From assembly GCA_038046645.1 (NCBI GenBank), contig JBBSVU010000005.1:1-59886 (forward strand): a stretch of DNA of 59,886 nt. Direction: 5' to 3'. The position numbers and the translations under genes are program-made. This document shows positions 1,356 through 51,175 of this stretch, one piece after another. The notes under the pieces were generated by a model. The model was not told the origin of the DNA. It made no database searches and was given only the letters and a program-made list of their open reading frames with translations. Source of the DNA: an archaeon. GTDB taxonomy: Archaea > Iainarchaeota > Iainarchaeia > Iainarchaeales > 0-14-0-20-34-12. The stretch's first letter is position 1; every line of letters starts with the position of its first letter.

Positions 1356-1530
1356 TATTATAAGTATATTTTTTCATGATATTATTAAGCTATTTGTACT
1401 ATAAAAAGATAACGTTTATAAAAAATTAAAGAATTATTATTTATATTTGCAAGCTAAGCATTGGTTATTGATTGACTGTTAATGAACTTGAGGCAGTTTT
1501 TTTGTGTTATTTCCAATCTTCGATTGGAAA

Positions 1531-1614
1531 TGCAGGAGGCAGGATTTGAACCTGCGAAGCCACTAAGGCACCGACCCCTGAAGCCGGCGGAATAGGCCAC
1601 TATCCGACTCCTGC
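1531..1614 (-). tRNA. tRNA-Leu(CAG)
   Basis: Reverse complement GCAGGAGTCGGATAGTGGCCTATTCCGCCGGC-TTCAGGG-GTCGGTGCCTTAGTGGCTTCGCAGGTTCAAATCCTGCCTCCTGCA. Acceptor GCAGGAG/CTCCTGC, CAG anticodon, long variable arm, GGTTCAAATCC T-loop, no encoded CCA. Confidence 0.95.
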
Positions 1615-12210: not shown

Positions 12211-13161
12211 ATGGGCTCAGTAAAAGACCTGAAATTATTGGAAAAACCTTCCTCATCTAAAGAAGGTTTGGGTATTTTTTATTTTACTGATGATTATTCT
12301 GTTTTTGATTATGGCAAAATGCCTGATACAATCCCTGATAAAGGCGCTGCTTTGTGCAGAATGTCTGCCTATAATTTTGAACAACTGAAAAGAATTGGGA
12401 TAAAAAGTCATTTCTTGGAATTAGTAAGCAACAATGAAATGAAAGTGAAATTAGTCCGTGTTTTAGACCCTAAAAAATTTGATTTATCAAAAGAAAAAGG
12501 CAATTATTTAGTTCCTTTGGAAGTTATATTCAGGAATTCTTTGCCAAGCGGCTCTTCTCTGTTGAAGAGATTGAACAATAAAGAAGTTACACTTGCGGAT
12601 TTGGGGTTAAAAGAAATGCCAAGAGAAGGCACAAAATTAAAAGACCCTATTCTGGATGTCAGCACAAAGCTTGAGGAAAAAGACCGCTATTTGAAATGGG
12701 CAGAAGCCCAGGCAATGTCAGGTTTGCCGGATAAAAAATTTCAGGAATTAAAAGAAACAGCATTAAAGGTAAATGAATTTCTTACTGAAAAAGCAGATTC
12801 TATCGGTTTGGAGCATGCTGATGGAAAGATTGAATTTGGTGTGAGTGCTAATTCAGATTTAATGATTGTTGATGTTTTAGGCACATTAGATGAAAACCGT
12901 TTCCTGTACAATGGCATTCACCTAAGCAAGCAGGTTTTGAGGGATTATTATAATCTAACTCCATGGAAGGAAGAATACCTGAAAAAAGGCAAATCAATAA
13001 CTCCGCCAAGGCTGCCAAAACAACTAATAACAATTGCATCTAATATGTACAAGGCTGTAGCAGAGGCATGGATAGATAAAAAAATCTGGAATGTCCCAAA
13101 AATTGAAAAAGTCGTAGAGGATTATGAATTATTTTTGGAAAATACGCAAAAAATGATTTGA
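12211..13161 (+). CDS. purC: SAICAR synthetase
   Basis: MGSVKD, FTDDYSVFDYG, PLEVIFRN, STKLEEKD, DGKIEFG and DVLGTLDENRF. Confidence 0.95.
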   Translation: MGSVKDLKLLEKPSSSKEGLGIFYFTDDYSVFDYGKMPDTIPDKGAALCRMSAYNFEQLKRIGIKSHFLELVSNNEMKVKLVRVLDPKKFDLSKEKGNYLVPLEVIFRNSLPSGSSLLKRLNNKEVTLADLGLKEMPREGTKLKDPILDVSTKLEEKDRYLKWAEAQAMSGLPDKKFQELKETALKVNEFLTEKADSIGLEHADGKIEFGVSANSDLMIVDVLGTLDENRFLYNGIHLSKQVLRDYYNLTPWKEEYLKKGKSITPPRLPKQLITIASNMYKAVAEAWIDKKIWNVPKIEKVVEDYELFLENTQKMI

Positions 13162-22546: not shown

Positions 22547-22574
22547 TAAATAATCTGGCTGCCAAGATTATTTA
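22547..22574. promoter_or_regulatory. Inverted repeat just upstream of the TA operon (candidate autoregulatory operator)
   Basis: taaataatct-ggctgcca-agattattta. Confidence 0.55.
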
Positions 22575-22581
22575 GATACAA

Positions 22582-22842
22582 ATGGATATTGTCTGGACTA
22601 GGCATGCAAGGGAAAAGTTCCTTGAACGCTCCCTAAAATATGACATAAACTATGCTGAAGTTGACATTCAAATAAAAGCGCAGAAGGTAAAGCAAAAACA
22701 GTTACACGGTACAATTAAAACAGTGTTTGAATTAAAGGACACTATTTTTACTGTGATAAAAGAAGAAACAAAAAAGTTGATTAATGTTGTGAGTATTTGG
22801 GAATCAAATGAGGCGGAGGTTGAATTATGGAAGAAAAAATAG
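22582..22842 (+). CDS. DUF4258/RelE-like toxin
   Basis: MDIVWTRHAREK N-terminus and VVSIW C-terminus. Overlaps the downstream zinc-finger gene. Confidence 0.7.
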   Translation: MDIVWTRHAREKFLERSLKYDINYAEVDIQIKAQKVKQKQLHGTIKTVFELKDTIFTVIKEETKKLINVVSIWESNEAEVELWKKK

Positions 22843-23156
22843 CCTGTGTTTTTTGTAAAGGGGAAGCTAATGTTGCTTTTGAAGAATTGAACCTTTTGAA
22901 TGGGAAAATAACCTTGAGGAATCAGCCATATTACAGATGCAACAAATGTAAAAAAGAATTTGTGACTCCAGAACAAATGCTACAAGCAGAAAAAGAGCTG
23001 AAAACACATTTTGCTTTCAATAGGCCAGTCATTTCTACTGGGAGAAGCCTTGCAATAACCTTGCCCACAGACCTTGTGGCTTTTTATAAATTAAAGAAAG
23101 GGACTACTGTGAAATTAGTTCCAGAGGATAACAAAACAGTAAAACTAGTCATTTAG
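22827..23156 (+). CDS. YgiT/MqsA-type zinc finger fused to an AbrB-like domain (antitoxin)
   Basis: CVFC...YRCNKCKKEF, then ISTGRSLAITLPTDLVAFYKLKKG. Confidence 0.75.
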   Translation: MEEKIACVFCKGEANVAFEELNLLNGKITLRNQPYYRCNKCKKEFVTPEQMLQAEKELKTHFAFNRPVISTGRSLAITLPTDLVAFYKLKKGTTVKLVPEDNKTVKLVI

Positions 23157-39508: not shown

Positions 39509-39599
39509 ACTATGTTTAGGATAAAGATTTATTTAAAAGTATCCATGGATAACACGCAGCCAATACTGTTTTTAAGCAATTCTTTTGTTTAATTTTAAT

Positions 39600-40790
39600 A
39601 TGGTGGGCTTTGACGAACGCGGAAGGGCGCATGTTTCTTTTAGCAAGGAAACAATGGAGCCGATTGCTGATGCTATTTTGGATATGCTTGAGGACATTGA
39701 AACAGAAGTAATGAAAGGCAAGCCTGTTTATGTATTGCATTTTCCAAGGGGAGCCACACCTATTGTAGATTCAATAGAATATGCAAGAACTAAATTAAGG
39801 GCATGGACTAAGAGAAGTTTTAATGTGATTAAAGTGCCGGTAAGCAGGGAAAATATGGATACCTGGGAAGCTGATGCCAAGATTAGGGAAGCATTGGCTG
39901 ATGTGCCTAATGGTGCAACTGTTTTTTATTTGGATGAAACAGTTTCAGGCAGAAATTCAAAAGGGAATATTAAATCCGTGATTGGCGCAACAAAAAATAA
40001 AGGAATTTCGTTAAGGGCGAATCTTCTTGTTTCAAGTGATGCCAAATACCTTGAATATGCGCAACTTAAGCAATTTAGAAATTTCCAGAGAAATCCCGTA
40101 GTTAAGATAAGATTGCATATTGTGCCTTTTGATATCCCTTGGAGTGATTTTACTGCAGCATTAGGTTTTAATTGGGGCCTGATGCATAAATTCCCGAGAA
40201 AGGTTTTGGAATTAGGTTTGGCTGATAAATTAACGCCGAAAGAGTTAGGCGCATTATTAAAAAAATGGGAAAGAGAATTTGAAGCAATTTATTTTGAAAG
40301 AATAGGCAAAAAGCGCGGGAAGGTTCTTCAGGTGAAGCATGATGACCCAAGATATTCTGACAGGGAAAAGATTGCCACAGATTGCATGTATGAAGCAGCA
40401 AGAAGATTAGGGTATGCTGAAGAGTATAATATAAGACGTTTAGGGGATCATGGGCTTAGCGTACTTGGCACAAATGTTATCTTCCATAGGCTTTCGAGAT
40501 ATTTATTTGATGACCATCCTAGCCATATCCTTTTAGGGGATAAAGCACCGCAATCTAAAAGAAGGGCATATCAGGAGATGGTTACCCCGGATAATCTTAC
40601 TTTAGTGGATATTAGGGGCCTTTCAGATAAAAGTGTTATTCTTACAAAAGCATTGCAGGCAGCAGTCGGCGCTGAGGTTCATAAAAGAAGGGCTGATTTT
40701 TTGAGAAAATTTGCCGTCCCAGTTACACACAAGAGAACAACATTGCCCAGCCCAAGAAGATTAAGGCTAAGAAGCCCAAGACGAAGGTAA
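39600..40790 (+). CDS. Orphan protein with a PRTase-like N-terminal half and an Arg-rich tail
   Basis: VLHFPRGATP and VFYLDETVSGRN resemble PRT-fold motifs. C-terminus PSPRRLRLRSPRRR. Confidence 0.55.
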   Translation: MVGFDERGRAHVSFSKETMEPIADAILDMLEDIETEVMKGKPVYVLHFPRGATPIVDSIEYARTKLRAWTKRSFNVIKVPVSRENMDTWEADAKIREALADVPNGATVFYLDETVSGRNSKGNIKSVIGATKNKGISLRANLLVSSDAKYLEYAQLKQFRNFQRNPVVKIRLHIVPFDIPWSDFTAALGFNWGLMHKFPRKVLELGLADKLTPKELGALLKKWEREFEAIYFERIGKKRGKVLQVKHDDPRYSDREKIATDCMYEAARRLGYAEEYNIRRLGDHGLSVLGTNVIFHRLSRYLFDDHPSHILLGDKAPQSKRRAYQEMVTPDNLTLVDIRGLSDKSVILTKALQAAVGAEVHKRRADFLRKFAVPVTHKRTTLPSPRRLRLRSPRRR

Positions 40791-40870
40791 TTCCTTTATA
40801 TTTGCCATACTAATTATATTATAAATTTTTTCAAATGCTTATCTATATCAAAAGGACGCAACACGCTGTT

Positions 40871-41049
40871 GGGGCTGTGGTGTAGCCTGGTCTAGCATAT
40901 AAGCTTTGGGGCCAAACTTTTCTTTTTTGAAAAGAAAAGTTTAGGCGTATCAAAAGAAAATAAGTTTTAGGATTATCAAAAGAAAACAATTTTCTTTTAG
41001 GTAACTGGCAAATTAGCTTACGACCCCGGTTCAAATCCGGGCAGCCTCA
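40871..41049 (+). tRNA. tRNA-Pro(TGG) with a 104-nt intron at 37/38 (40911-41014)
   Basis: Acceptor GGGGCTG/CAGCCTC, anticodon stem TAAGC/GCTTA, BHB helix TTTG/CAAA with 3-nt bulges, GGTTCAAATCC T-arm. Confidence 0.93.
40912..40960 (+). repeat. Dispersed A/T hairpin repeat module inside the tRNA-Pro intron
   Basis: ccaaacttttctttt-ttg-aaaagaaaagtttaggcgtatcaaaagaaaa. A close copy lies at 50061-50114. Confidence 0.8.
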
Positions 41050-41053
41050 AACC

Positions 41054-41110
41054 CCTTTTCTCTTTTTAAAGAGAAAAGGCGTTTACGGTCAAAAGAGAAA
41101 AAGAAAAGTT
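41054..41110 (+). repeat. Related hairpin repeat module directly 3' of tRNA-Pro
   Basis: ccttttctctt-ttta-aagagaaaagg, then gtcaaaagagaaaaagaaaagtt. Confidence 0.65.
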
Positions 41111-41118
41111 AGTATCAC

Positions 41119-41255
41119 TGACGCTCCATGGGTGCGCGGAAGCCCAAACTTTTAAGTTTGGGAGGAGCGCACCCATTTCATTCCTTTCTGTATTGGGCTT
41201 CCGCCTGAAGCCCACTCTACTAAAGACGCCATGGGCTTCAGCCCATGGAGCGTCA
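41119..41255. mobile_element. GC-rich non-coding mini-element resembling IS200/IS605 ends (PATE/MITE-like)
   Basis: 14-bp terminal inverted repeats tgacgctccatggg/cccatggagcgtca, and internal gaagcccaaac-tttta-agtttgggagga and ccatgggcttcagcccatgg hairpins. Confidence 0.6.
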
Positions 41256-41305
41256 CAAAAGAAAAAGAGAAAGCTAGTTGCACCAAAAAGAAAGAGGAAC
41301 TATTT

Positions 41306-41662
41306 TTAAATTCCTAAAAATTTTATAATAAAACCAAGCAAGATCAAATTAAGCGTTATTGGGATAATGGTGTGCTTTGCAATTTTTGCCCCTGCTGTGA
41401 AAAAAGAAAAGGTGCAGGCAAATGGGAAATAAATTAATGGGTTATTTGTTGCTGGCGATATTATTCCCAGTAAAGTAAATATGTCAGCAAGGCTGATTAA
41501 CCAGATTGAAATTACAAAAAGCCCTTTGAGTGATATCTTGTTGTAGGCTATTTGCGTTGCCAGTAGGAATATGAATGCCCAGCCCAAATTGTTCAATAAA
41601 AGGTTGTTTATCACGTAATCAAAATCCCCTATTGCTAGCCTTGCCAGAAGTTCTATTAACAT
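41306..41662 (-). CDS. Membrane protein, unknown function
   Basis: 118 aa, about 4 TM helices. Confidence 0.6.
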   Translation of the reverse strand: MLIELLARLAIGDFDYVINNLLLNNLGWAFIFLLATQIAYNKISLKGLFVISIWLISLADIFTLLGIISPATNNPLIYFPFACTFSFFTAGAKIAKHTIIPITLNLILLGFIIKFLGI

Positions 41663-41756
41663 ATATAAAATGCCCCCAAGTTAGCTTATTTGTATTATTG
41701 TTCCCCAAGGGGGTCGCAATAGATAGATTTTTATTATTTTTAGTGCATCTTTAAGT

Positions 41757-42527
41757 ATGGAACTGAAGCGTTTGGGTGAAATAGGCCTGACAGAGGGTGA
41801 AGTTAAGGTATATCTGGCATTGTTGCGGCTCGGCCTGACCAAGACAGGGCAGCTTGCATTAAAAGCAGGGGTTTCAAGCTCAAAGGTTTATAAGATTTTA
41901 GGTCGCCTGGAAAAGAAGGGGTTGGCAGGTCATGTGATTAAAGGCAAGATAAAATATTACAAGCCAATGGAACCAGAACGCTTGCTTGATTATTTGAATG
42001 AAAAAGAAAAGGAATTTTCAGAAAAAAGGGCTATTGTTGAAACACTAATGCCTGAATTAAAGAATGAGCAGGCGTCTGCTGCTAAGTTAAATGAAGCAGT
42101 TATTTACCAGGGCTTTAAAGGGGTGTCTAATTTTTTCAAAAATCTTATTGATGAATTGCAGAAAGGCGATTGTTATTATGTTATTGGGGCATATTATGGC
42201 AATGAGGCACAGGATGAAGTGACGGCAAGATGGAGGGATTTTTTCTTCAAGCACCACCTAAGAAGAACAAGCAAGGGCATTAAGGTAAAGATGCTTGCCA
42301 ATTATGACATAAAAGGAAAAATGGTCAAGACAACCCAGAAAAATTCAGAGATACGGTTTTTGCCGCAGTATTTAGTAACAAATATGGAAATTGTTTTTTA
42401 CAAAAATAAATCATTTATTGCAATTTTTACCTCAGAACCTGTTGGGTTTTTGATAGAAAACGAGGAAGCTACTTTGGGTTTTAAGAAATATTTTGAAGCA
42501 TTTTGGAAGATAGCGGAAAAAAGTTAA
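41757..42527 (+). CDS. TrmB-family transcriptional regulator
   Basis: IGLTEGEVKVYLALL...SKVYKILGRLEKKGL wHTH, VIYQGFKGV and a PLD-like C-domain. Confidence 0.9.
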   Translation: MELKRLGEIGLTEGEVKVYLALLRLGLTKTGQLALKAGVSSSKVYKILGRLEKKGLAGHVIKGKIKYYKPMEPERLLDYLNEKEKEFSEKRAIVETLMPELKNEQASAAKLNEAVIYQGFKGVSNFFKNLIDELQKGDCYYVIGAYYGNEAQDEVTARWRDFFFKHHLRRTSKGIKVKMLANYDIKGKMVKTTQKNSEIRFLPQYLVTNMEIVFYKNKSFIAIFTSEPVGFLIENEEATLGFKKYFEAFWKIAEKS

Positions 42528-42558
42528 TTATTTATTCTAAAGTGCCTTAATTATAACG

Positions 42559-43131
42559 ATGTCCCACAGGATTTTGCTAGAAGGCCTAATAAAAATTAAG
42601 AAATCATTTGTTGCCGAACAGGTAATGGTCCTAAGAAGCGTCTCAAATGAGTTGATGAGAGAAGCTTCAATAAAAAATGATTCCTTATTGGCGCATGCAG
42701 CAATTATTGCCTATTGTTTGCACAAATTTTTGACAAAAGAACATGTTGTAACATCAGGTTTCTGGCTTGAATATAAAATGGCAGTTCTTTCATCACTGGA
42801 AAATTCAATAAAGCTGATTGAAAAGAATAACTTAAAAGATTACAAGGAAGAGCTTGATTCAATCTCTGCCCATCTTGAAAAGCTTGATAGGGAGATAGGG
42901 CGTTATGTGCAAGGGTTATACACTAAAGCAAAAGTAAAATACGCTGCAGATGCTTATTATTACGGGCTTTCACTGAGCAAGGCTGCGGCCTTGACTAATG
43001 CAGATTTAAGTGCGCTGCAGCAATACATCGGTGTTACAACACAGCACGATATTGATGCAGACAAGAAAGGCATTAGCGTAAGGCTTAATGAATTCAAGAA
43101 AGCAATAAATTATGTTTCTAGGGTGGATTAA
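42559..43131 (+). CDS. Helical hypothetical protein with a C-terminal HTH-like segment
   Basis: 190 aa, GLSLSKAAALT. First gene of a three-gene run. Confidence 0.65.
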   Translation: MSHRILLEGLIKIKKSFVAEQVMVLRSVSNELMREASIKNDSLLAHAAIIAYCLHKFLTKEHVVTSGFWLEYKMAVLSSLENSIKLIEKNNLKDYKEELDSISAHLEKLDREIGRYVQGLYTKAKVKYAADAYYYGLSLSKAAALTNADLSALQQYIGVTTQHDIDADKKGISVRLNEFKKAINYVSRVD

Positions 43132-43132
43132 A

Positions 43133-43819
43133 ATGGCTGAATCAACAAAAGTAATTATTGATTCTAGCACTTTAATTGCATTGTCCGGAAGCTGCCTTTT
43201 CAACATTTTGCACAGGCTGAAGGAAAAAAACAGCCTAGATTTCCTGATTTCAGAAAAGGTGAGAAAGGAATCTGTAGATACGCCTCTTTCAATAAACAGG
43301 TTTGAGCTTAATGCATTAAGGATCAGGGAGGCAATAAATAAAGGCACAATATTTGTTGTAAAGCAAAGTAAGGATCTTGGCGATTTGATGAAGCAGATGG
43401 GCAATGCTGCCGAGAATGTTTTTACCTCTGAAGGCACAGGCTCTTTAAGCTTGGTCCATGCTGGTGAGTTAGAATCCATAGCTTTGGTGAAATTATTAAA
43501 TGCTAAAGTTCTTGCAATTGATGAGCGCATAACAAGGTTTTTTGTGGAAAATCCTGAGGAATTGAGGACTCTGCTAGAAACAAGAAGGGATGAAAAAATA
43601 TCTTTTGATGAAAAAGCATATCTCAAATTTGCTGAATTAATGCCTGAAATGTCAATAATACGGTCTAGCGAATTGATTGCGCTGTCCTATGAACAGGGAT
43701 TTTTGGAAGCTGATTTAGGCAAGGGAAAGGAAACATTGAAGGCAGCATTATTTGCACTTAAAAATAATGGCTGCGCGCTTTCAGGATATGAGATAAAATC
43801 TTTTGTGAATAAATTATGA
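43133..43819 (+). CDS. PIN-like domain protein
   Basis: VIIDSSTLIAL, VHAGELESIAL and VLAIDERITR. Confidence 0.75.
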   Translation: MAESTKVIIDSSTLIALSGSCLFNILHRLKEKNSLDFLISEKVRKESVDTPLSINRFELNALRIREAINKGTIFVVKQSKDLGDLMKQMGNAAENVFTSEGTGSLSLVHAGELESIALVKLLNAKVLAIDERITRFFVENPEELRTLLETRRDEKISFDEKAYLKFAELMPEMSIIRSSELIALSYEQGFLEADLGKGKETLKAALFALKNNGCALSGYEIKSFVNKL

Positions 43820-44274
43820 TGGCTTTTTCTGCAGTTGAACTCTCTGATTTAAGAAAAATACTGCCTTTGATAAAAAAAGAGTTCTCGTACACAAAAATGA
43901 CCCTGATTAACCTCAGGATGCGCTTCAAAGATACAAAAAAATTTCTTTTTCTGAAGGTTTTAAACGATTCCGAGTTAGCTGGTTTTGCAGAAGTAGAATT
44001 CCTGGAAAAAAACCTCGCGAGAATAAACGGGATAGCAATTCTGGAAAGCTTCAGGAGAAAAGGTTATGGCAAATTCCTGCTTGAGAATGTTTTGTGTCTG
44101 CTTACTGAGATGGGTGCGCTTAAAGTGATATTGCTGGTGAGGGAGAATAATGAAAATGCAAGGGCATTATATGAAAAATTCGGTTTCAAGAAGTATTACG
44201 CCGATAAAATAAGCAAAGTGGATTCTTTTTCGCTTGATTTAAATCCTTTTGATCAATACTCTTTTGCTGCATAA
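43816..44274 (+). CDS. GNAT family N-acetyltransferase
   Basis: IAILESFRRKGYGK and NENARALYEKFGF. Confidence 0.9.
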   Translation: MMAFSAVELSDLRKILPLIKKEFSYTKMTLINLRMRFKDTKKFLFLKVLNDSELAGFAEVEFLEKNLARINGIAILESFRRKGYGKFLLENVLCLLTEMGALKVILLVRENNENARALYEKFGFKKYYADKISKVDSFSLDLNPFDQYSFAA

Positions 44275-45749
44275 GCAACAACAGTTGCTTTTTTTCCGCA
44301 AACAATGCAATTTCCAGAGGCTTTTTCCTGAATATCTGCCCTTTTGCCCCTTATTCTTGCCATCATGTTTTTTTCAATTACTGTTGCGCATTCTTCCCCG
44401 TCTTTCTCAAGCGAGCAGAAATTTACTTTCACAAGATTGCGTTCCTCAAGGTATTTTTTCAGTTCTTCAATATCCTTTGCAGATTTTATTTTTTCCTTAA
44501 ACCGTGCATCTGCCTTTTCCCTCAAATTATTTATAATTTCTTTCTTTGCTCTTTCAATATGCTCAATTAAATCGGCAGGATTTAATACCTCTTTTTTCTT
44601 TGTATCCCTTCTGAATATTACTATGTGATTTTCCTTCAATTCCTTTGGGCCTATTTCTATTCTTAATGGGACGCCTTTCATTTCCCAATAATAGAATTTT
44701 TCGCCCATTGTCCTGTCGGATGCATCTATCTCAACCCTATAGCCTTTCTCAAATAATTCATCCTTCAATTTATTTGCCATTTTCAAAACAGCGGGGTCTT
44801 TTTCTGCTGCTATTGGGATTATTGCTATCTGCACAGGAGCAATTTCAAAAGGGAATATTAAGCCAGAAGCATCACCATGTGTTGCTATTACACCTGCAAA
44901 TATCCTGCTTATGCAAGGCCCATAACAATTCAAATATGCTAATTTTTCATTTCCATCCTTGTCTTTAAACAATACATTAAATGGCTTGGAAAAATTCTGC
45001 CCAAGAATGTGTGTAGAAGGCAGCTGCAATGTCCTGCCATCCGGTGTTAATGTATCCGCACCAAATGTTGAGACTGCCCCGGCAAATTTATCCCAGGCAG
45101 GCCTTTCAAAGAAAATATACGGAACACCTAATTTTTCATGCAGTATTGTTTCTGTCGTTTCCATATCTTCCTTTACCTGATTTTTGGACTCTTCCAAAGA
45201 AGAAAAAGCATTATGTGTTTCAATCCAGTAAAATTCCCTGCTCCTTAAAAAAGGCCTTGTTGCCTTTGTTTCATACCTCCAAACCTGCGCTCTTTGATAT
45301 GTCTTGAATGGCAAATCCCTGTATGAGCGAATCCATAAAGCAAACATCTGGTAAAAAGCGGTTTCGCTTGTTGGCCTTAATGCAAGTTTTTCCTCGAATT
45401 TTTCACCATTGCCATGTTCTGTAACCCAGAAAACCTCAGGGGCAAACCCCTCAACATGTTCTTTTTCAAGCATAAAATTGCTTTCAGGTATCAATGAAGG
45501 GTACCAATATGGCTTATGCCCTTTTTTTTGCAGTTCTTTCTCAAATAAATCATACATTGCTTCCATTGCCAGAACAGACCATGGCTGGAAAACTAAAAAG
45601 CCCTTTACGTTGTATCTGATGTCAGCTAACTCTGCTGTTTTTATAATATCAGTAAACCAGTCTGAAAAATTCTTGTCCTTGTCAATATTGAAGGTTACTT
45701 TTTCCGAGTCTTTTCCTTCATTCTTTGCCTGGTTTTTTTCATTAGCCAT
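44253..45749 (-). CDS. proS: Prolyl-tRNA synthetase (archaeal/eukaryotic type)
   Basis: LRPTSET, RYETKATRPFLRSREF, HILGQNFS and a C-terminal Zn-binding CIVCG. Confidence 0.97.
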   Translation of the reverse strand: MANEKNQAKNEGKDSEKVTFNIDKDKNFSDWFTDIIKTAELADIRYNVKGFLVFQPWSVLAMEAMYDLFEKELQKKGHKPYWYPSLIPESNFMLEKEHVEGFAPEVFWVTEHGNGEKFEEKLALRPTSETAFYQMFALWIRSYRDLPFKTYQRAQVWRYETKATRPFLRSREFYWIETHNAFSSLEESKNQVKEDMETTETILHEKLGVPYIFFERPAWDKFAGAVSTFGADTLTPDGRTLQLPSTHILGQNFSKPFNVLFKDKDGNEKLAYLNCYGPCISRIFAGVIATHGDASGLIFPFEIAPVQIAIIPIAAEKDPAVLKMANKLKDELFEKGYRVEIDASDRTMGEKFYYWEMKGVPLRIEIGPKELKENHIVIFRRDTKKKEVLNPADLIEHIERAKKEIINNLREKADARFKEKIKSAKDIEELKKYLEERNLVKVNFCSLEKDGEECATVIEKNMMARIRGKRADIQEKASGNCIVCGKKATVVAYAAKEY

Positions 45750-45800
45750 TATATTAGCATCTGAATAAGCCTTTTTAATGGTTATTAATGTTTATTACAT

Positions 45801-46391
45801 ATGCGCCTGCCATTTAGAAGATTTTTTAGGGCTGTTGCCGATAGGGCAAGAATGCTTGGCCAAAGAAAAGGAAAAAGTGAAAGAAAGGCGCCTGTTAGAA
45901 CAGAACCTGCTGATTTTGATGAGCCGCCAACTGTTTCAATAGGGTTGGATGATAATATGCAAAGAGAGATGGCAGGAAATTTGCATAGGCTGGCATCAGC
46001 TAAAGGTTTTAGGATAAATAGAAAACCAGAAGAAGTACAAATAGTCAGGGCAGATGGTCGCACTTTAATTATTTCCGCCAGGTCTGACCCTAGGATTTCA
46101 CTTAAATTCTCAGTTAACGTAGAAGAAGAACCAACAGAATCAGGGAAAAATCCAAGCCTTTATGTTAAACTGCCCGGAAAAGATTCATTATTATTTTTAA
46201 CCAAGAAAAGCCCAGGTGTTTTTATCTCCGAGCCTTTTGGGCGTTTGCATGTGGCAGCTGCAAACCTACCTAGTGAATTCATTTCAAAATTCCAGGGCCA
46301 TTTTGAAGTAAGGTATGAAGGCGCCGACAAAAAACCAAGGGTTTATTTTTATAATTTTGGCAGGCCAAATTGCACCAGCAGCCTAGGGTAA
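45801..46391 (+). CDS. Arg-rich orphan protein
   Basis: 196 aa, MRLPFRRFFRAVADRAR N-terminus. No family recognised. Confidence 0.6.
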   Translation: MRLPFRRFFRAVADRARMLGQRKGKSERKAPVRTEPADFDEPPTVSIGLDDNMQREMAGNLHRLASAKGFRINRKPEEVQIVRADGRTLIISARSDPRISLKFSVNVEEEPTESGKNPSLYVKLPGKDSLLFLTKKSPGVFISEPFGRLHVAAANLPSEFISKFQGHFEVRYEGADKKPRVYFYNFGRPNCTSSLG

Positions 46392-46450
46392 TACATTAAC
46401 CTTTTATTAACAAAATAATACTATTTTTATATGCGTTTTATATTGCTTTT

Positions 46451-46960
46451 TTGGTTTATTTTTCGTATGACTTGAATTCAGGTTCTTTCTCTTTTAATTC
46501 TGTGAAAATAATTGAAGCAGAAAATATTGGTTATGATATGGGCAGTGAAGAAGGCTATTCTCTGAAATTGTTTAATAAAAAGGAATCGCACGAAATAAAG
46601 TTTCAGCCATCTGGCGTAATATACATTGATTTGCCATCAAAAGACTTGTTTGATGAAAACGGAGAACAAATTTACTTTCCGACAATAGAAGAAACAATTC
46701 AGGTAAAAGAAAAAACAGGACATACACTGTTGTTGCCATACCTTGAAAACGCAGAAATGCAAATAATGGATGACAAAGGGAAAACGAAATTAAAAATAAA
46801 TTTACAGGAAGAAGTAGAAAAACAATTTTCAGATATGGAAAAAGAACCGCAGCAAGAGAAAATGCCACTAAGCAACCAAATAATTTTTGGAGTAGGACTT
46901 TTACTTATTCTGTTAATTATTTATTCTTTCATAAAAAAATCAGTAAAAGGAAAAAAATAA
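46451..46960 (+). CDS. Exported protein with a C-terminal TM anchor
   Basis: C-terminal IIFGVGLLLILLIIYSFIKK. The frame is open upstream to ATT at 46406 (INKIILFLYAFYIAFL, signal-like), so the start is uncertain. Confidence 0.55.
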   Translation: MVYFSYDLNSGSFSFNSVKIIEAENIGYDMGSEEGYSLKLFNKKESHEIKFQPSGVIYIDLPSKDLFDENGEQIYFPTIEETIQVKEKTGHTLLLPYLENAEMQIMDDKGKTKLKINLQEEVEKQFSDMEKEPQQEKMPLSNQIIFGVGLLLILLIIYSFIKKSVKGKK

Positions 46961-46989
46961 TATTATCGCCCCTACTTTATATAGTTAAG

Positions 46990-47787
46990 TTAACTAACAA
47001 AAATAGTCCCCATATCTTCGCCCTTAATAATCCTTAACAAAACATTTTCTGCAGAATGGTTTGCAATAACCATCTTTGCACCAGCTTCCATAACTAATTT
47101 AGCTGCATTTATTTTTGATATCATGCCGCCTTTGCCCAATTCTGATTTTCCGGAAGCCAAATCTTCAATTTCTTTTGTTATTTTGTCAACATGTTCAATT
47201 AATTTTGCATCCTTATTTTCAATTGGATTCTTATCAAACAATCCATTAGTGTTTGTAAGCATTACCAATAGTTGAGCATCAAGATGTATTGCAACTAATG
47301 CAGATAATTTGTCATTATCCCCGAAAGTTGGGCCGATTTCGTCAACAGCAACGACATCATTTTCATTAATTATTGGAATTGTTTGCTTACTAACTAATGT
47401 TAGGATAGCCTGTTTCAAATTCGCAAGTTTTTTCTTTTCTGTTAATGCATCATATGTCAAAAGTATCTGCGCAATGCTTAATCCGTATTTTTTAAATGCC
47501 CTGCCATATTCAGCCATTAATAAATGCTGGCCAATAGCTGCGCAAGCTTGCTGCATTTCAGTCGTTTTTGGCCTTTCAGTCAAGCCTAGTTCTTGCATCC
47601 CTATCCCAATTGCCCCACTTGTCACTAAAATTGATTCAATTCCTTTTTTCTTTAATTCATTTATTTGATTTGCTAATGAGTATATAAAATTCAGGTTCAA
47701 AGCATTTGAATTTTGGGTAATTGAAGTTGTGCCTACCTTTATTACAATTCTTTTTACATCCTTCAAACATTCTTTTCTTGTAATCAT
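46990..47787 (-). CDS. proB: Glutamate 5-kinase (no PUA domain)
   Basis: IVIKVGTTS, VTSGAIGIG, AAIGQ, INENDVV, FGDNDKLSA and GKGGMISKI. Confidence 0.95.
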   Translation of the reverse strand: MITRKECLKDVKRIVIKVGTTSITQNSNALNLNFIYSLANQINELKKKGIESILVTSGAIGIGMQELGLTERPKTTEMQQACAAIGQHLLMAEYGRAFKKYGLSIAQILLTYDALTEKKKLANLKQAILTLVSKQTIPIINENDVVAVDEIGPTFGDNDKLSALVAIHLDAQLLVMLTNTNGLFDKNPIENKDAKLIEHVDKITKEIEDLASGKSELGKGGMISKINAAKLVMEAGAKMVIANHSAENVLLRIIKGEDMGTIFVS

Positions 47788-47813
47788 ACCTATACCTTTG
47801 ACATAAAATATTA

Positions 47814-49067
47814 TTAACCCCTTATTTGGCCATTTCCTTCTATTATGTACTTGTAAGTAGTTAATTCCCTCACGCCCATCGGACCTCTTGCATGTATCTT
47901 TTGTGTTGAAATTCCAACTTCCATGCCTAACCCAAATTCGCCGCCATCAGTAAACCTTGTTGATGCATTAGAATAAACTGCGGCAGCATCAACATTCTTG
48001 AAGAAATATCCGATTGCTTTTTTTGATTCTGAAACTATTGCTTCAGAATGCCTTGTGCCATATTGCCTAATATGTTTAACAGCTTCTTCAACCGAAGAAA
48101 CAGTTTTTATTGAAATTATATAATCCAAATATTCTGTTTCCCAGTCTTTTTCATCTGCCAATTTCCATTTTTTCAAATATTTCCCAGCTTTTGCATCTGC
48201 CCTAATTTCACAATTTTTTGCATTTAGTTCTTTTTCCAGCAAAGGCAAGAATTTTTCAGAAATCTTTTCATGCACAATCAATGTTTCCAAAGCATTGCAT
48301 ACTGAAGGCCTTTGTGTTTTTGCATTCACAACAATTTTCACTGCTTTTTCCAAATCCGCAAATTCATCAACATAAGTATGGCATACCCCTGCACCTGCAC
48401 CAATAAATGGTACTTGAGAATTTTCCCTCATGAACTTCATTAAACCCAGGCCGCCTCTTGGAATGATTAAATCAACAGAGTCATTTGCCCTTAACATTGT
48501 TAAAACATCTTCCTTTTTTGTTGGGTCAATGCCTTGCACAGTAAATTCATCCAACCCTGCTTTTTGAATGCCTTCCTTTATTGTTTCAATAATTGCAATA
48601 TTGCTGTAAAAGGCAGTTTCATCCCCTTTCAATAAAACAACATTCCCTGATTTCAAGCATAAAGCAGCAGTATCCAATGTTACATTTGGCCTTGCTTCAT
48701 ATATTACCCCAATTACCCCAATTGGGACGCTGATTTTTTTCAAGTTTAATCCATTATTTAATGTTTTTTCTTCCAAGACCCTGCCAATAGGGTCATTAAA
48801 CCCAATTACTTCATCCAAAGCTGTAACCATTCCATTAACCCTTGAATCATTTAATTCCAAGCGGTCAAGCAAAGCATTAGTCAATCCTTTTTTCTTCCCA
48901 TTTTCCAAATCCTTTTTGTTTGCATCAAGAATTTTTTCCTTGTTTTTCAGCATGCTTTTCTTTATTTCCTGCAATGCCTTATTTTTCTGTTCTGCCGAAT
49001 AGCTCATTGCAGAATATGAAGCTTCTTTTGCTTTTTGCAATTGTTCGTTTATATTCATAAAAATCAT
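47814..49067 (-). CDS. proA: Gamma-glutamyl phosphate reductase
   Basis: VPIGVIGVIYEARPNVT, IIPRGG, SVCNALET and NASTRFTDGGEFGLG.EVGISTQK.HARGP. Confidence 0.97.
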   Translation of the reverse strand: MIFMNINEQLQKAKEASYSAMSYSAEQKNKALQEIKKSMLKNKEKILDANKKDLENGKKKGLTNALLDRLELNDSRVNGMVTALDEVIGFNDPIGRVLEEKTLNNGLNLKKISVPIGVIGVIYEARPNVTLDTAALCLKSGNVVLLKGDETAFYSNIAIIETIKEGIQKAGLDEFTVQGIDPTKKEDVLTMLRANDSVDLIIPRGGLGLMKFMRENSQVPFIGAGAGVCHTYVDEFADLEKAVKIVVNAKTQRPSVCNALETLIVHEKISEKFLPLLEKELNAKNCEIRADAKAGKYLKKWKLADEKDWETEYLDYIISIKTVSSVEEAVKHIRQYGTRHSEAIVSESKKAIGYFFKNVDAAAVYSNASTRFTDGGEFGLGMEVGISTQKIHARGPMGVRELTTYKYIIEGNGQIRG

Positions 49068-49859
49068 TTATTTGAGCTGGCTTACTTCTTTTGATTTATC
49101 AATAGCTTCCCTGATTGTTTTATTTATTATTTCTTCAATTTCAGAATTATTCAATGCAATTAATCCAGCTTCAGTTATCCCGCCTTTTGTTGCAACTTTT
49201 TCAATAAAACTTTCAGGCAGGGCTTTCTGCTGAATTAATAATTTAGCAGAGCCATAGAATGTTTGCTCAGCTAATAATAATGCTTGTTTCTCATCAAGGC
49301 CATATTCTTTAGCAGCTTTTGCGAATTTTCCAATAAAATAAGCAACAAATGCAGGCCCGCACCCAGACAACGCGGTAACAACATGCATTTTATCTTCAGA
49401 AACCTCAATCAGTTTTGCATTCTTTCCAAATAAAATGCCTAATGATTCAATATCTTTCCTTGCGGCATTTTTCCCAAAGCAGTATGCCCCGGCCATTTCC
49501 CCTACTATCAATGCAAGATTTGGCATTACCCTGATTATTTTTGCAATAACCTTAGAATCATAAAAAGATGTTTCTAAACCAGCTGCAACAGTTACAATGG
49601 TTTTTTTCAAATCACAGGATTCTTTTATCTCTTCAAGCACAGATTTCATGTCCTGCGGCTTTACCGCCAATATAATAACATCGCAATTCTTTGCCACATC
49701 AGCATTTTTCCTTGAAACATTTATGCTTTTTTTTGCAAGTTCCCCCAAGGAACAATTTTTATCCGAAACATAAATATCAGCTTTAGCTATGCCTGAATTA
49801 ATTAAATTGTCCAATATTGCACTGCCCAAATGCCCGCAACCAATTATTCCATATCTCAT
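49068..49859 (-). CDS. proC: Pyrroline-5-carboxylate reductase
   Basis: IIGCGHLG, LAVKPQ, IRVMPN, LSGCGPAF and VATKGGIT. Confidence 0.95.
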   Translation of the reverse strand: MRYGIIGCGHLGSAILDNLINSGIAKADIYVSDKNCSLGELAKKSINVSRKNADVAKNCDVIILAVKPQDMKSVLEEIKESCDLKKTIVTVAAGLETSFYDSKVIAKIIRVMPNLALIVGEMAGAYCFGKNAARKDIESLGILFGKNAKLIEVSEDKMHVVTALSGCGPAFVAYFIGKFAKAAKEYGLDEKQALLLAEQTFYGSAKLLIQQKALPESFIEKVATKGGITEAGLIALNNSEIEEIINKTIREAIDKSKEVSQLK

Positions 49860-49861
49860 AA

Positions 49862-50016
49862 TCTCAGTTTTTTCTATTTTTCTTTTGTGATACTCTCAGT
49901 TTTTTCTCTTTTCAATAGTTTTTCTTTTGATAAAATTTTTCTTTTTTTAAACCTAGTAAAATTCTTTTGAATTTTACTGGTCCTTTCAAGCTTCGCTTGA
50001 AATGGAAAAGAAAAGG
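49862..50016 (-). repeat. A-rich repeat and hairpin cluster downstream of tRNA-Trp
   Basis: On the minus strand: TTTCAAGC-GAA-GCTTGAAA, AGTAAAATTC-AAAA-GAATTTTACT, TATCAAAAGAAAA, TATCACAAAAGAAAA and two AAAAAACTGAGA. Confidence 0.6.
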
Positions 50017-50018
50017 TT

Positions 50019-50312
50019 TGGGGTTGCTGGGATTTGAACCCAGATCAGCAGGTACCTTCCCCAAGCCTTTTTCTTTCTTAAAAGAAAAAGTCTAGGGCTT
50101 ATCCAAAAAGAAAGAACTCCCTTCTTTTTACTACCTGCTATTCATCATTGTTTCTTGCGAAACTCTGCGCTCCAATCGAATATGCCCTAGAGAAAATGTG
50201 ATTAATTATAACCAGCTTCTTTTCTCTTACAAACCTATTTTCTCTTTTCTTATAAAGAAAAGAGAAAACGGTGACTGGAGCCTGCTGTGCTGCCGGGTTA
50301 CACCACAACCCC
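50019..50312 (-). tRNA. tRNA-Trp(CCA) with a 221-nt intron at 37/38 (50054-50274)
   Basis: 5' exon GGGGTTGTGGTGTAACCCGGCAGCACAGCAGG-CTCCAG, 3' exon ACCTGCTGATCTGGGTTCAAATCCCAGCAACCCCA. The BHB is imperfect (CTCC/GAAG). Confidence 0.92.
50091..50191 (-). ncRNA. Intron-encoded box C/D guide RNA (partial)
   Basis: Guide GATTGGAGCG plus D'-like CAGA, GTTTC-GCAA-GAAAC hairpin, C' box ATGATGA, guide AGCAGGTA, closed by a TCTAGGGC/GCCCTAGA stem. Confidence 0.75.
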
Positions 50313-50374
50313 ATTACTTCCTTTCTGTAACCTAATTAGATGCCTAAAATCATTTTTATACGTTGCTATTTGTT

Positions 50375-51175
50375 TTATTTCTCGGAATCTTGGCAGTCCT
50401 TGTAATCTTCAGGTTTTGCATTAGGCATTATTTTTGTAACCGTGTTTGTGAACATTACCAAATTAGTCCCATAGGTTTCTTCCCTGTACTGCTTCAGAAT
50501 TCTTCCGTTTTCATAATCAAAAAGATAATAACCGGTAATTATTACATTCTTGTTTGTTCCGCCGAATGTAATTTTAAGTGCATTGAATTCCTTTCCTTCC
50601 AACTTTAATTTTTCAACGCCTATAGCAGCATAATTCAGGCCGTTGTATTCCCAGCCATTGTTTATTGATACCTTTTCCTTAGGCAGTATGAGGTTTGATA
50701 ATTGTGCTTCAGTTCCCTCTGCAATTATTGACCCGTTTTCATAAGCACGGTACTGTTTCTTTTTGTTTATGATTGATTGTTCTTCACAGGTGCTTGATTT
50801 GTTCCCATCAACCAAGTTATATGCATCAAGCATGATTACATCCACTAAGGCAGAGTTTTCATCAACACTTTCTGCAATTGTTATTGTTTTCATGTAATTT
50901 TTCAAAGATTCTGGCAACCCATTTGTTATTATTTCAACATCATTTACCAAGCCTTCATTTTTATTGTATTTTATTGCAAGTTTTGTTGGCTCAAAATTTT
51001 GTGCATTGCCTACTTCAGTATCTGCTTTTTTCAGCAAATCATCAGTGCCCACAAGTACCTTAGAATTATCAGTCATATTTGCATTTTCGTCTTCAGTTTG
51101 TGGCTGTTGCTGGACGCAGCCGCTTAATATAATTACCAATAAAATTGCCAAAATAATAAAGAATTTTAATTTCAT
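50375..51175 (-). CDS. Putative lipoprotein
   Basis: MKLKFFIILAILLVIILSGCVQQQPQT lipobox, beta-rich body. Confidence 0.7.
   Translation of the reverse strand: MKLKFFIILAILLVIILSGCVQQQPQTEDENANMTDNSKVLVGTDDLLKKADTEVGNAQNFEPTKLAIKYNKNEGLVNDVEIITNGLPESLKNYMKTITIAESVDENSALVDVIMLDAYNLVDGNKSSTCEEQSIINKKKQYRAYENGSIIAEGTEAQLSNLILPKEKVSINNGWEYNGLNYAAIGVEKLKLEGKEFNALKITFGGTNKNVIITGYYLFDYENGRILKQYREETYGTNLVMFTNTVTKIMPNAKPEDYKDCQDSEK

Follow-up and report, generated by a model that had tools for sequence, protein, structure and literature searches.

The closest described systems to the repeats reported here are the PIT, BoxC and TMECO repeats and the ITxF class II and class IV motifs, which are intrastrand-triplex elements known from bacteria (Hoyne et al. 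2000; Holder et al. 2015, PMC4666352). The loops allowed are 1–6 nt in ITxF and 0–10 nt in Hoyne et al., the purine motif is reported not to form in RNA, and RNA is able to adopt the class IV arrangement (U·A-U) (PMC4666352). A full-text literature search found only bacterial work and no report of such elements in archaea or in tRNA introns. We analyzed a 59,886-nucleotide stretch of DNA (the window), which is positions 1–59886 of contig C5 of the host assembly; the other contigs are cited in the same manner. The host is a DPANN (Diapherotrites-like) archaeon, as indicated by 90% identity of its DNA ligase to the enzyme of 'Candidatus Diapherotrites archaeon CG08_land_8_20_14_0_20_34_12', and its assembly comprises 1.17 Mb in 25 contigs with ~35% G+C and is 89% complete. 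The genes for tRNA-Pro(UGG) and tRNA-Trp(CCA) in the window are interrupted, and the A/T-rich hairpins in both introns are members of a genuine, hitherto undescribed family of repeats found in small groundwater archaea. Each complete copy, called a module below, joins a hairpin to a third tract. We give a probability of roughly 55% to the whole explanation, in which the modules belong to the intrastrand-triplex type, so far described from bacteria alone, behave as cassettes, and have a boundary role at the DNA level. The descriptive part of this explanation, a triplex-type cassette family tied to exon edges, is very probably correct.

Module architecture and census

The program aragorn, run with intron search, identified 43 tRNA genes in the genome. 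Eleven of these have introns of 69–221 nt, including the Pro and Trp genes of the window, and the program misses some interrupted tRNAs. Ten of the 11 long introns begin with the same unit. Read 5′ to 3′, it consists of a pyrimidine tract of T and C (Y, 9–16 nt), a loop of 3–4 nt, a purine tract that is the reverse complement of Y (R1), a linker of ~11 nt, and a second purine tract (R2). The linker is often a mini-palindrome and often contains TAGG. R2 is the mirror image of R1 and not its direct repeat, which makes it the parallel complement of Y. A preliminary description of this DNA had noticed the hairpins and a recurring tail; it overlooked that the tail is the mirror third tract of the hairpin's purine arm and that the three tracts co-vary. 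By its base order, the strand as written is a class II (purine-motif) arrangement and the complementary strand is a class IV (pyrimidine-motif) arrangement.

A sensitive census of the genome found 61 Y/R hairpins, and 49 of them have a mirror third tract, which was counted if the mirror match was at least 8 nt. The linker is at most 25 nt long in 44 of the 49 modules. Five first-order Markov shuffles of the whole genome gave 4–11 hairpins and 0–1 with a third tract, so the similarity between copies far exceeds that of shuffled sequence. Watson-Crick pairs occupy 651 of 654 stem positions (510 T-A and 141 C-G), no G·T pair occurs in the stems with their 141 G positions, and the third tract equals the mirror at 607 of 610 aligned positions. 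Within each copy the three tracts co-vary almost perfectly, whereas their sequences vary among copies. In 48 perfect hairpins, the mirror arrangement fits better than the direct repeat in 32, worse in 2, and equally well in 14. Permutation of the query letters gives p ≤ 0.03 for ~36 of these 48 hairpins. The first loop is 3 nt in 44 of the 49 modules. The second loop, formed by the linker, is 11–12 nt in 30 of the 49 and ranges from 8 to 19 nt, with a few of 70–92 nt. The tracts are A/T-rich with ~18% G, and the third tracts of the host genome contain no GG where 20 are expected.

These values agree with the three-tract definition of class II and class IV motifs and with their stem rule of at least eight triplets occurring more often than in scrambled genomes. 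Loop 2 is longer than the short loops of that class, and ITxF settings would miss these modules because of it. The TMECO/BoxC consensus, CCCTCNCCC-N3-6-GGGNGAGGG-N3-GGGNGAGGG, does not describe the A/T-rich and variable tracts found here.

The window holds four of the 49 modules, named P1, P2, W1, and W2 (Table 1), and these align with one another. The DNA fold of P1 is –10.5 kcal/mol (z = –4.2), the DNA fold of W1 has z = –5.4, and ViennaRNA predicts only the hairpin part of modules. The tail sequence TATCAAAAGAAAA occurs exactly at 40948, 40974, and 49920–49932 (–), and a fourth exact copy at 12485 is inside an open reading frame (ORF). Six matches are found when one mismatch is allowed compared to 1.4 expected, and none of 100 shuffles reaches six. 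All sequences quoted in the preliminary description were recovered where it had placed them, with the minus-strand tail one base off. Rfam gave no match in the window at the gathering threshold or in 40500–50600 at E ≤ 1. These negatives should be read with caution because the intron-less tRNA-Leu that aragorn finds at 1531–1614 (–) was also unmatched. This tRNA-Leu has a 3′-end hairpin of a different kind from the modules.

An account without any element would be a chance likeness of low-complexity tracts or a set of ordinary oligo-T terminators. Purine and pyrimidine tracts of at least 11 nt are indeed common in a 35% G+C genome, mostly in Lys/Glu-rich coding sequence, and the ORF copy of TATCAAAAGAAAA is an example of an exact match there. 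The 49 three-tract modules compared to 0–1 in shuffles, the permutation and mirror-versus-direct tests, and the enrichment at tRNAs described below (p = 3e-39) refute this account. A reversed control pattern gives 0–4 matches per genome compared to up to 67, and oligo-T termination needs neither a complement nor a mirror tract. The probability left to chance is negligible.

Table 1. Features of the two interrupted tRNA loci in the window
Feature	Position	Strand	Details
tRNA-Pro(UGG)	40871–41049	+	Exon 1 40871–40910; intron 40911–41014 (104 nt); exon 2 41015–41049; from aragorn -i and exon matches
Module P1	40917–40960	+ (sense to tRNA-Pro)	5′ side of intron; Y CTTTTCTTTT 40917–40926; loop TTG; R1 AAAAGAAAAG 40930–40939; linker TTTAGGCGTATC 40940–40951; R2 AAAAGAAAA 40952–40960
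Solo linker-plus-R unit	40967–41001	+	TTAGGATTATC-AAAAGAAAA; pairs with the following TTTTCTTTT as a small R/Y hairpin
Module P2	41054–41108	+ (sense)	3′ trailer, 4 nt past tRNA-Pro end; 11-bp stem 41054–41079; Y CCTTTTCTCTT; loop TTTA; R1 AAGAGAAAAGG 41069–41079; linker CGTTTACGGTC; R2 AAAAGAGAA 41091–41099, purine tract continues to 41108
Degenerate unit	41257–41299	+	Purine tract, linker (CTAGTTGCACC), purine tract, without pyrimidine partner; probably a decayed module
tRNA-Trp 3′ trailer	49861–50016	–	Pyrimidine-tract remnant CCTTTTCTTTTCC 50016–50004; GCGAAGC-centered hairpin 50002–49984; TAAAATT-type hairpin 49980–49952; purine-tract array 49948–49861, includes TATCAAAAGAAAA
tRNA-Trp(CCA)	50019–50312	–	Exon 1 50275–50312; intron 50054–50274 (221 nt); exon 2 50019–50053
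Module W2	50067–50116	+ (antisense to tRNA-Trp)	3′ side of intron, hairpin faces exon 2; Y CTTTTTCTTT 50067–50076; loop CTTA; R1 50081–50090; linker TCTAGGGCTTATCC; R2 AAAAAGAAA 50105–50113 (to 50116)
Box C′/D′-like guide core	50131–50177	–	Trp intron; GATTGGAGCG/ATTGGAGCG-CAGA ... AATGATGA-ATAGCAGGTAG; read from sequence
Module W1	50217–50268	– (sense to tRNA-Trp)	5′ side of intron; 14-bp stem 50238–50268; Y TTTTCTCTTTTCTT 50268–50255; loop TAT; R1 AAGAAAAGAGAAAA 50251–50238; linker TAGGTTTGT 50237–50229; R2 AAGAGAAAAGAA 50228–50217

Position and polarity at stable-RNA genes

The modules were located relative to tRNA genes and to crude, self-made ORF calls. Thirty-five of the 49 modules are tRNA-associated, meaning that they are in introns or within 12 nt of tRNA ends. 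Fourteen are located 1–12 nt past a tRNA 3′ end in the same sense, eight are 5–7 nt before a tRNA 5′ end in antisense, and ten are at the 5′ side of an intron in the same sense. W2 is the single module at the 3′ side of an intron in antisense. The other two belong to a tRNA-Arg(CCU) on C14, overlooked by aragorn, and occupy one end each of its intron. All 35 have the hairpin on the side of the mature segment and the third tract distal to it, a polarity that holds in 77 of 77 cases when relatives are included. The distance from the hairpin to the exon edge is about 3–10 nt in leaders, in trailers, and at both intron ends. At least one module accompanies 27 of the 43 tRNAs. The tRNA-associated space is 0.5% of the genome and 4% of the non-coding DNA, and the binomial p for at least 36 of 49 modules against non-coding DNA is 3e-39; the count of 35 gives a similar value. 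This is an excess of ~20-fold over other non-coding DNA.

The genome census agrees with the preliminary description of a dispersed, non-coding repeat family concentrated in tRNA introns and flanks, and the enrichment it proposed to test genome-wide is found. The same description saw none of these elements near protein-coding genes. This is correct within the window, where all four modules belong to the two intron-bearing tRNAs, but not in the genome, where three modules directly follow stop codons on C3, C19, and C20. The C20 copy is located after the ATP-synthase K/c gene (atpK) inside the ATP-synthase operon. One further module is 6 nt before a start codon (C1:2173), and the remaining modules away from tRNAs include copies behind a recurrent promoter-like unit. 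No modules flank the 16S or 23S rRNA in the host genome, and only the spacer tRNA-Ala carries modules. The idea that tRNA introns are passive safe havens is only partly right: it leaves the ~20-fold excess, the fixed spacing from exon edges, and the uniform polarity unexplained.

A different proposal of the preliminary description, that self-contained hairpins preserve the bulge-helix-bulge (BHB) splice motif, is borne out for tRNA-Pro. The archaeal BHB consists of two 3-nt bulges with a 4-bp helix between them at the exon-intron junctions. A canonical motif with flanking helices (hBHBh′) can be read around the module as TAAGC-TTTG-GG↓G-CCA ... TGG-CAAA-TT↓A-GCTTA, with a TTTG/CAAA central helix, GG↓G and TT↓A bulges, and a CCA/TGG outer helix. 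P1 starts 3 nt past the outer helix. The module is inside the loop closed by this canonical hBHBh′ and so should not disturb splicing. The 3′ bulge of tRNA-Trp is not canonical for a BHB.

The positions could also reflect a function in RNA, in which the hairpin would serve the processing or stability of precursor RNAs. It might be an inert helix in a discarded leader, trailer, or intron, a stabilizer of the upstream mRNA, or an outer helix near the splice bulge, and the third tract might bind a protein or offer an alternative pairing. Every module is located in a part of a stable-RNA precursor that is transcribed but discarded, or in sense orientation at an mRNA 3′ end, such as the one after atpK, and the mature segment is always adjacent to the hairpin. 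Several introns contain a pyrimidine tract further on with which R2 can pair. In 5′ leaders and on intron 3′ sides the sense RNA has the class IV order, which is able to form in RNA (PMC4666352), but most copies, those in 3′ trailers and on the 5′ side of introns, carry the purine-motif order in sense RNA. A helix switch would need a direct repeat, yet the mirror beats the direct repeat by 32 to 2. The stems have no G·U pair at 141 G positions and their loops are 3 nt. Y tracts with T4–T7 runs follow 14 tRNA 3′ ends and three stop codons, and the same tracts are also inside transcribed introns, where T5–T7 runs look hazardous for archaeal RNA polymerase. A function of the modules in RNA is improbable on this evidence.

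Additional observations were made at these loci. The tRNA-Arg(CCU) gene is unannotated and located at C14 ~22560–22860, and its ~147-nt intron consists of two modules in inverted orientation, as in tRNA-Trp. The gene called tRNA-Thr(tgt) by aragorn at C16:81751 has exons almost identical to those of tRNA-Ser(GGA) and is probably tRNA-Ser(UGA). Six perfect 8–10-bp hairpins close a C-GAA-G loop, several of them with GCGAAGC, which is the sequence of an unusually stable DNA mini-hairpin. All six are intergenic (window 1509–1531 (–) and 49984–50002 (–), C1:72426, C1:72529, C11:41892, and C14:36877), and four are in tRNA 3′ trailers with GAA on the sense strand. Downstream of tRNA-Pro, a strongly structured 137-nt segment at 41119–41257 (+) separates the trailer module from the next purine tracts. 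Its terminal stem of 14 bp (TGACGCTCCATGGG / CCCATGGAGCGTCA) has ACA immediately behind it, and its RNA fold is –72.4 kcal/mol (z = –8.6). It has no Rfam match, is absent at this position in the locus of a close relative with a tRNA-Pro ortholog (L001), and is possibly an H/ACA-like small RNA. Upstream, a 401-aa ORF at 39585–40790 (+) without a Pfam match separates tRNA-Pro from the DNA ligase gene. In L001, 88 nt lie between the ligase gene and the start of the tRNA, so the ORF is an insertion/deletion difference between the two.

Turnover of modules among relatives

Relatives were searched with a pattern that specifies composition only (12 Y, 3 N, 12 R, 11 N, 10 R). It matches in 12 of the 41 nearest genomes and in 41 of 121 genomes sampled from the phylum, with 0 to ~67 matches per genome and the highest numbers in family f23; the reversed pattern gives 0–4. 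The three-way match is kept in 36 further modules from 3-kb loci of more than 10 other genera. Polarity is conserved in 30 of 30 tRNA-associated modules from more than 10 other genera and in 12 of 12 of a module-rich genome (G110). Linkers are conserved across families as nTAnGTTGCC and CCCTTGGGTTC, and those of G110 are 8-nt palindromes such as CGTTGACG, CGTCGACG, and CGTTAACG. A palindromic linker would return the beginning of R2 to where R1 ends, as a tight turn requires. RNase P RNA genes also carry modules. In G003 (locus L070, C4:96407–96737), a module with extra linker-plus-purine units follows the 3′ end of the gene, and in the same-genus genome G001 (locus L068, C31:15322–15693), a module plus T8 is inside the gene just after the GAGGAAAGTCC box. 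No RNase P RNA gene was detected in the host assembly. This gene is present in 11 of 11 high-quality relatives, the same genus included, and the gap in the host is therefore probably due to the incomplete assembly.

Intron length and content were compared among relatives, as the preliminary description had suggested, and the sequences show that modules are swapped, gained, and lost between congeners inside pre-existing introns. The tRNA-Trp exons of G001 are identical to those of the window, and its intron is 152 nt. The 5′ module in this intron has the tracts TTCTCTTTCTTTT / AAAAGAAAGAGAA / AAGAGAAAGAAA with the linker TGTAGATTGCC. All three tracts differ from those of its ortholog W1 (Table 1), and their joint change is most simply a replacement by another subfamily. 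W2 is absent from the G001 intron, and the site of a disrupted module in the Trp 3′ trailer of the window is occupied by an intact one in G001. The tRNA-Pro(UGG) ortholog in L001/G001 has a 155-nt intron with a module of another subfamily, and two unrelated hairpins are inserted in the loop of this module. Other families have a tRNA-Pro intron at the same position of 16, 44, 57, 80, or 88 nt without a module. In most relatives the Pro and Trp genes lack introns, or the Trp intron contains the guide core alone. These data indicate that the introns are older than the modules, which colonized them.

The guide core of the Trp intron resembles the inner part of a box C/D RNA. The fifth base upstream of its D′-like box pairs with C34, and a second guide pairs with the exon-2 junction of tRNA-Trp. 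Conservation of the core extends to G012, G028, and G001, the last with CTGA as its D′ box. We did not recognize terminal C and D boxes around the core by reading the sequence.

Exchange of this kind would also fit a selfish element. The preliminary description proposed a non-autonomous element resembling repetitive extragenic palindromic (REP) sequences or miniature inverted-repeat transposable elements (MITEs). In a fuller version of this idea, such an element would be mobilized in trans by a structure-specific enzyme that recognizes fold-back, possibly triplex, single-stranded DNA and inserts it beside stable-RNA genes, and tRNA introns and flanks would be the places where copies survive. 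Identical-tract subfamilies do occur at several loci, for example seven copies with TTTTCTTTTTCTCTT, and congeners differ by presence/absence and by subfamily swaps. Other small hairpins are nested in module loops and linkers, solo linker-plus-purine-tract remnants suggest decay, and the occurrence is patchy at 41 of 121 genomes with 0 to ~67 matches each. Y1 transposases match in six of 12 module-bearing relatives, mostly as multi-copy IS200/IS605-type genes or fragments, compared to one of eight module-free genomes tested.

An exchangeable cassette is supported by the swap and loss in the Trp intron, but a REP/RAYT or MITE mechanism is not. The predicted REP-associated tyrosine transposase (RAYT) or TnpA-Y1 gene with matching end hairpins was not found in the host genome (PF01797, 0 matches with control genomes detected), an absence that is not absolute in an 89% complete assembly. 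Y1/RAYT genes were also not found in five of the richest relatives (G107, G059, G042, G064, and G106). The only transposon genes found in the host are TnpB-only copies with ends unrelated to the modules. Neither terminal inverted repeats nor a target-site duplication was detected at the one clean presence/absence site, W2 compared to G001. The same tRNAs bear modules in different families, and the 77 of 77 polarity together with the spacing of about 3–10 nt would demand very precise targeting. A selfish element is an unlikely explanation in view of these results.

Other repeated sequences were noted in the host. TnpB-like (Cas12f1-like_TNB) genes are located at C14:32033, C25:10322, and C10:27 and at the contig ends C2:6 and C6:6, and the fragments at contig ends suggest that these repeats break the assembly. 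The unit TTTATAAA-N10-GAGTAGATTTCC(CC)TGAA recurs at 18 genome sites (for example C6:8336, C6:27728, C14:33136, and C25:9410), none in the window, and looks like a promoter plus conserved transcript start. Six copies extend into ...GTAGATTTCCCGCTCACACGGTTAA, and two of these (C14 and C25) are divergent beside full-length TnpB genes. Another four or five copies lead without interruption into an array of triplex modules. A second hairpin family (TTAAAATYnnnnnRATTTTAA; CCAGTAAAATT...AATTTTACTGG) is nested in module loops and linkers at 49952–49980 (–) in the window, at L001:2790–2870, and in the C6:153944 region; this nesting stretches module loops and linkers to 70–92 nt.

A proposed fold-back triple helix and its relation to known systems

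The third tract is the decisive feature. A mirror tract has no Watson-Crick meaning and cannot arise from templated copying. That it matches R1 almost perfectly in ~100 copies, although their letters differ, is an argument that a three-stranded fold is under selection. The three-way constraint would reflect a real fold-back triple helix, and this helix is more likely to form in single-stranded or unwound DNA than in sense RNA. Three points favor DNA: the absence of wobble at 141 G positions together with 3-nt loops, the predominance in sense RNA of the purine-motif order that is reported not to form in RNA, and a geometry around exons that is mirror-symmetric and alike on both strands whatever the sense of the transcript. 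We suggest that the modules spread as cassettes by recombination or gene conversion. Their position at the edges of stable-RNA genes, which are transcribed very heavily, would result from retention or preferential creation of copies there, and at these edges they may act as a structural boundary element, either as a sink for unwinding or as a barrier to polymerases entering from outside. Copies in discarded RNA segments would be removed by normal tRNA processing. We regard the DNA-level boundary function itself as a tentative proposal that is somewhat more likely wrong than right.

Several points weigh against the triplex and boundary interpretation. For either strand, the triplex is a prediction from the sequence. 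Purine-motif triplexes rich in A are weak, and those of the pyrimidine motif depend on protonation of C. A recent origin of the copies, and not strong selection, could account for the near-perfect tracts. Modules, some with T5–T7 runs, are inside introns that must be transcribed, which fits poorly with a barrier or terminator role, and the module plus T8 inside the G001 RNase P RNA gene must also be transcribed through. Promoter positions upstream of the 5′ modules are uncertain, with a strict TATA-like hexamer at four of eight. The third tracts of G110 contain GG or GGG, and the argument from isolated G residues is limited to the host genome. Bacterial PIT elements showed neither promoter nor terminator activity (PMC4666352).

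A number of narrower ideas were rejected. The rule that G is never adjacent, taken as proof of the pyrimidine motif, is true in the host and contradicted by G110. The hairpin loop is not the TATA box of tRNAs with 5′ modules; loops such as GCG are not TATA-like and no TATA-like hexamer is inside the modules. A TATA box just upstream of the distal tract, which would keep the tract out of the RNA, is a weak proposal with the strict hexamer in only four of eight cases. Split transcription of tRNA halves from an intron promoter was considered from ATATTTAAAA-like boxes in some introns, but their distances from exon 2 are inconsistent. Leaderless tRNAs for want of RNase P are contradicted by the RNase P RNA in all 11 high-quality relatives. 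Pairing of the W1 R2 with the W2 distal tract would close the Trp intron, but the two sequences do not match, and tRNA-Arg(CCU) is the only case in which partial pairing of this sort is possible.

A more far-reaching version of the triplex interpretation, in which the module is a functional triple-helix device that punctuates every discarded stable-RNA segment in these archaea, is doubtful. DNA unwound by heavy transcription could fold on both strands at once, as class II on one and class IV on the other, which would keep ~60 bp open. In an alternative form, an RNA·DNA-DNA triplex could arise when the nascent pyrimidine tract binds the mirror duplex two blocks further downstream; Y is the parallel complement of R2, and this relation permits such binding in both directions of travel. 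Either way, the module would mark and insulate the tRNA exons and, as a copied cassette, drive the growth of BHB introns.

Very few natural triple helices carry a clear evolutionary signature. In many genera, genomes contain dozens of modules whose tracts stay matched while their letters change; this amounts to covariation-type evidence for a three-stranded fold, and such evidence is normally confined to Watson-Crick helices. The strict position and polarity at tRNA exons and RNase P RNA point to a role or a targeting rule linked to stable-RNA genes. The modules are also a tractable system for the lengthening and content exchange of archaeal tRNA introns, and they explain several tRNA genes missed by standard tRNA and Rfam scans in these genomes.

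Two archaeal intron systems share features with the modules. BHB tRNA introns of Thermoproteales are said, in 2010 work by Fujishima and colleagues, to move between tRNA genes. As in that system, related sequences are common to introns of unrelated tRNAs and intron content turns over rapidly. The unit here differs in being a cassette smaller than the intron, it also occurs in leaders, in trailers, and after protein genes, and the host introns are older than the cassette. The pre-tRNA-Trp intron of Haloferax and other Euryarchaeota holds a box C/D guide RNA. The C′/D′-like core of the window likewise puts C34 fifth from the D′ box and is conserved in relatives, but its terminal C and D boxes are not recognizable and it is bracketed by two triplex-type modules.

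REP sequences and their mosaic forms (bacterial interspersed mosaic elements, BIMEs) are short extragenic palindromes present in many copies. Likewise, a module may stand alone or form a mosaic with other small hairpins, and modules are found at the 3′ ends of genes and within operons. REP elements stabilize upstream mRNA, and the atpK copy is comparable to these. Unlike REP/BIME systems with RAYT, the host has no RAYT/Y1 gene, and the modules have a mirror third tract and a tie to tRNA exon edges.

The closest likeness is to the PIT, BoxC, and TMECO repeats. Both sets place pyrimidine, complementary purine, and mirror purine blocks on one strand (class II, with class IV opposite). Both are multi-copy and intergenic, have no associated transposase, vary strongly in copy number among related genomes, and are linked to genome variability. 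The modules differ in being archaeal and A/T-rich (~18% G) rather than G/C-rich, and they lack a fixed consensus because the tracts vary by copy. Their second loop of 9–15 nt is conserved and often palindromic, compared to 3 nt in TMECO and 1–6 nt in ITxF. Unlike the bacterial repeats, the modules keep strictly to the borders of tRNA and RNase P RNA segments, where their polarity is fixed, and they occur in BHB introns.

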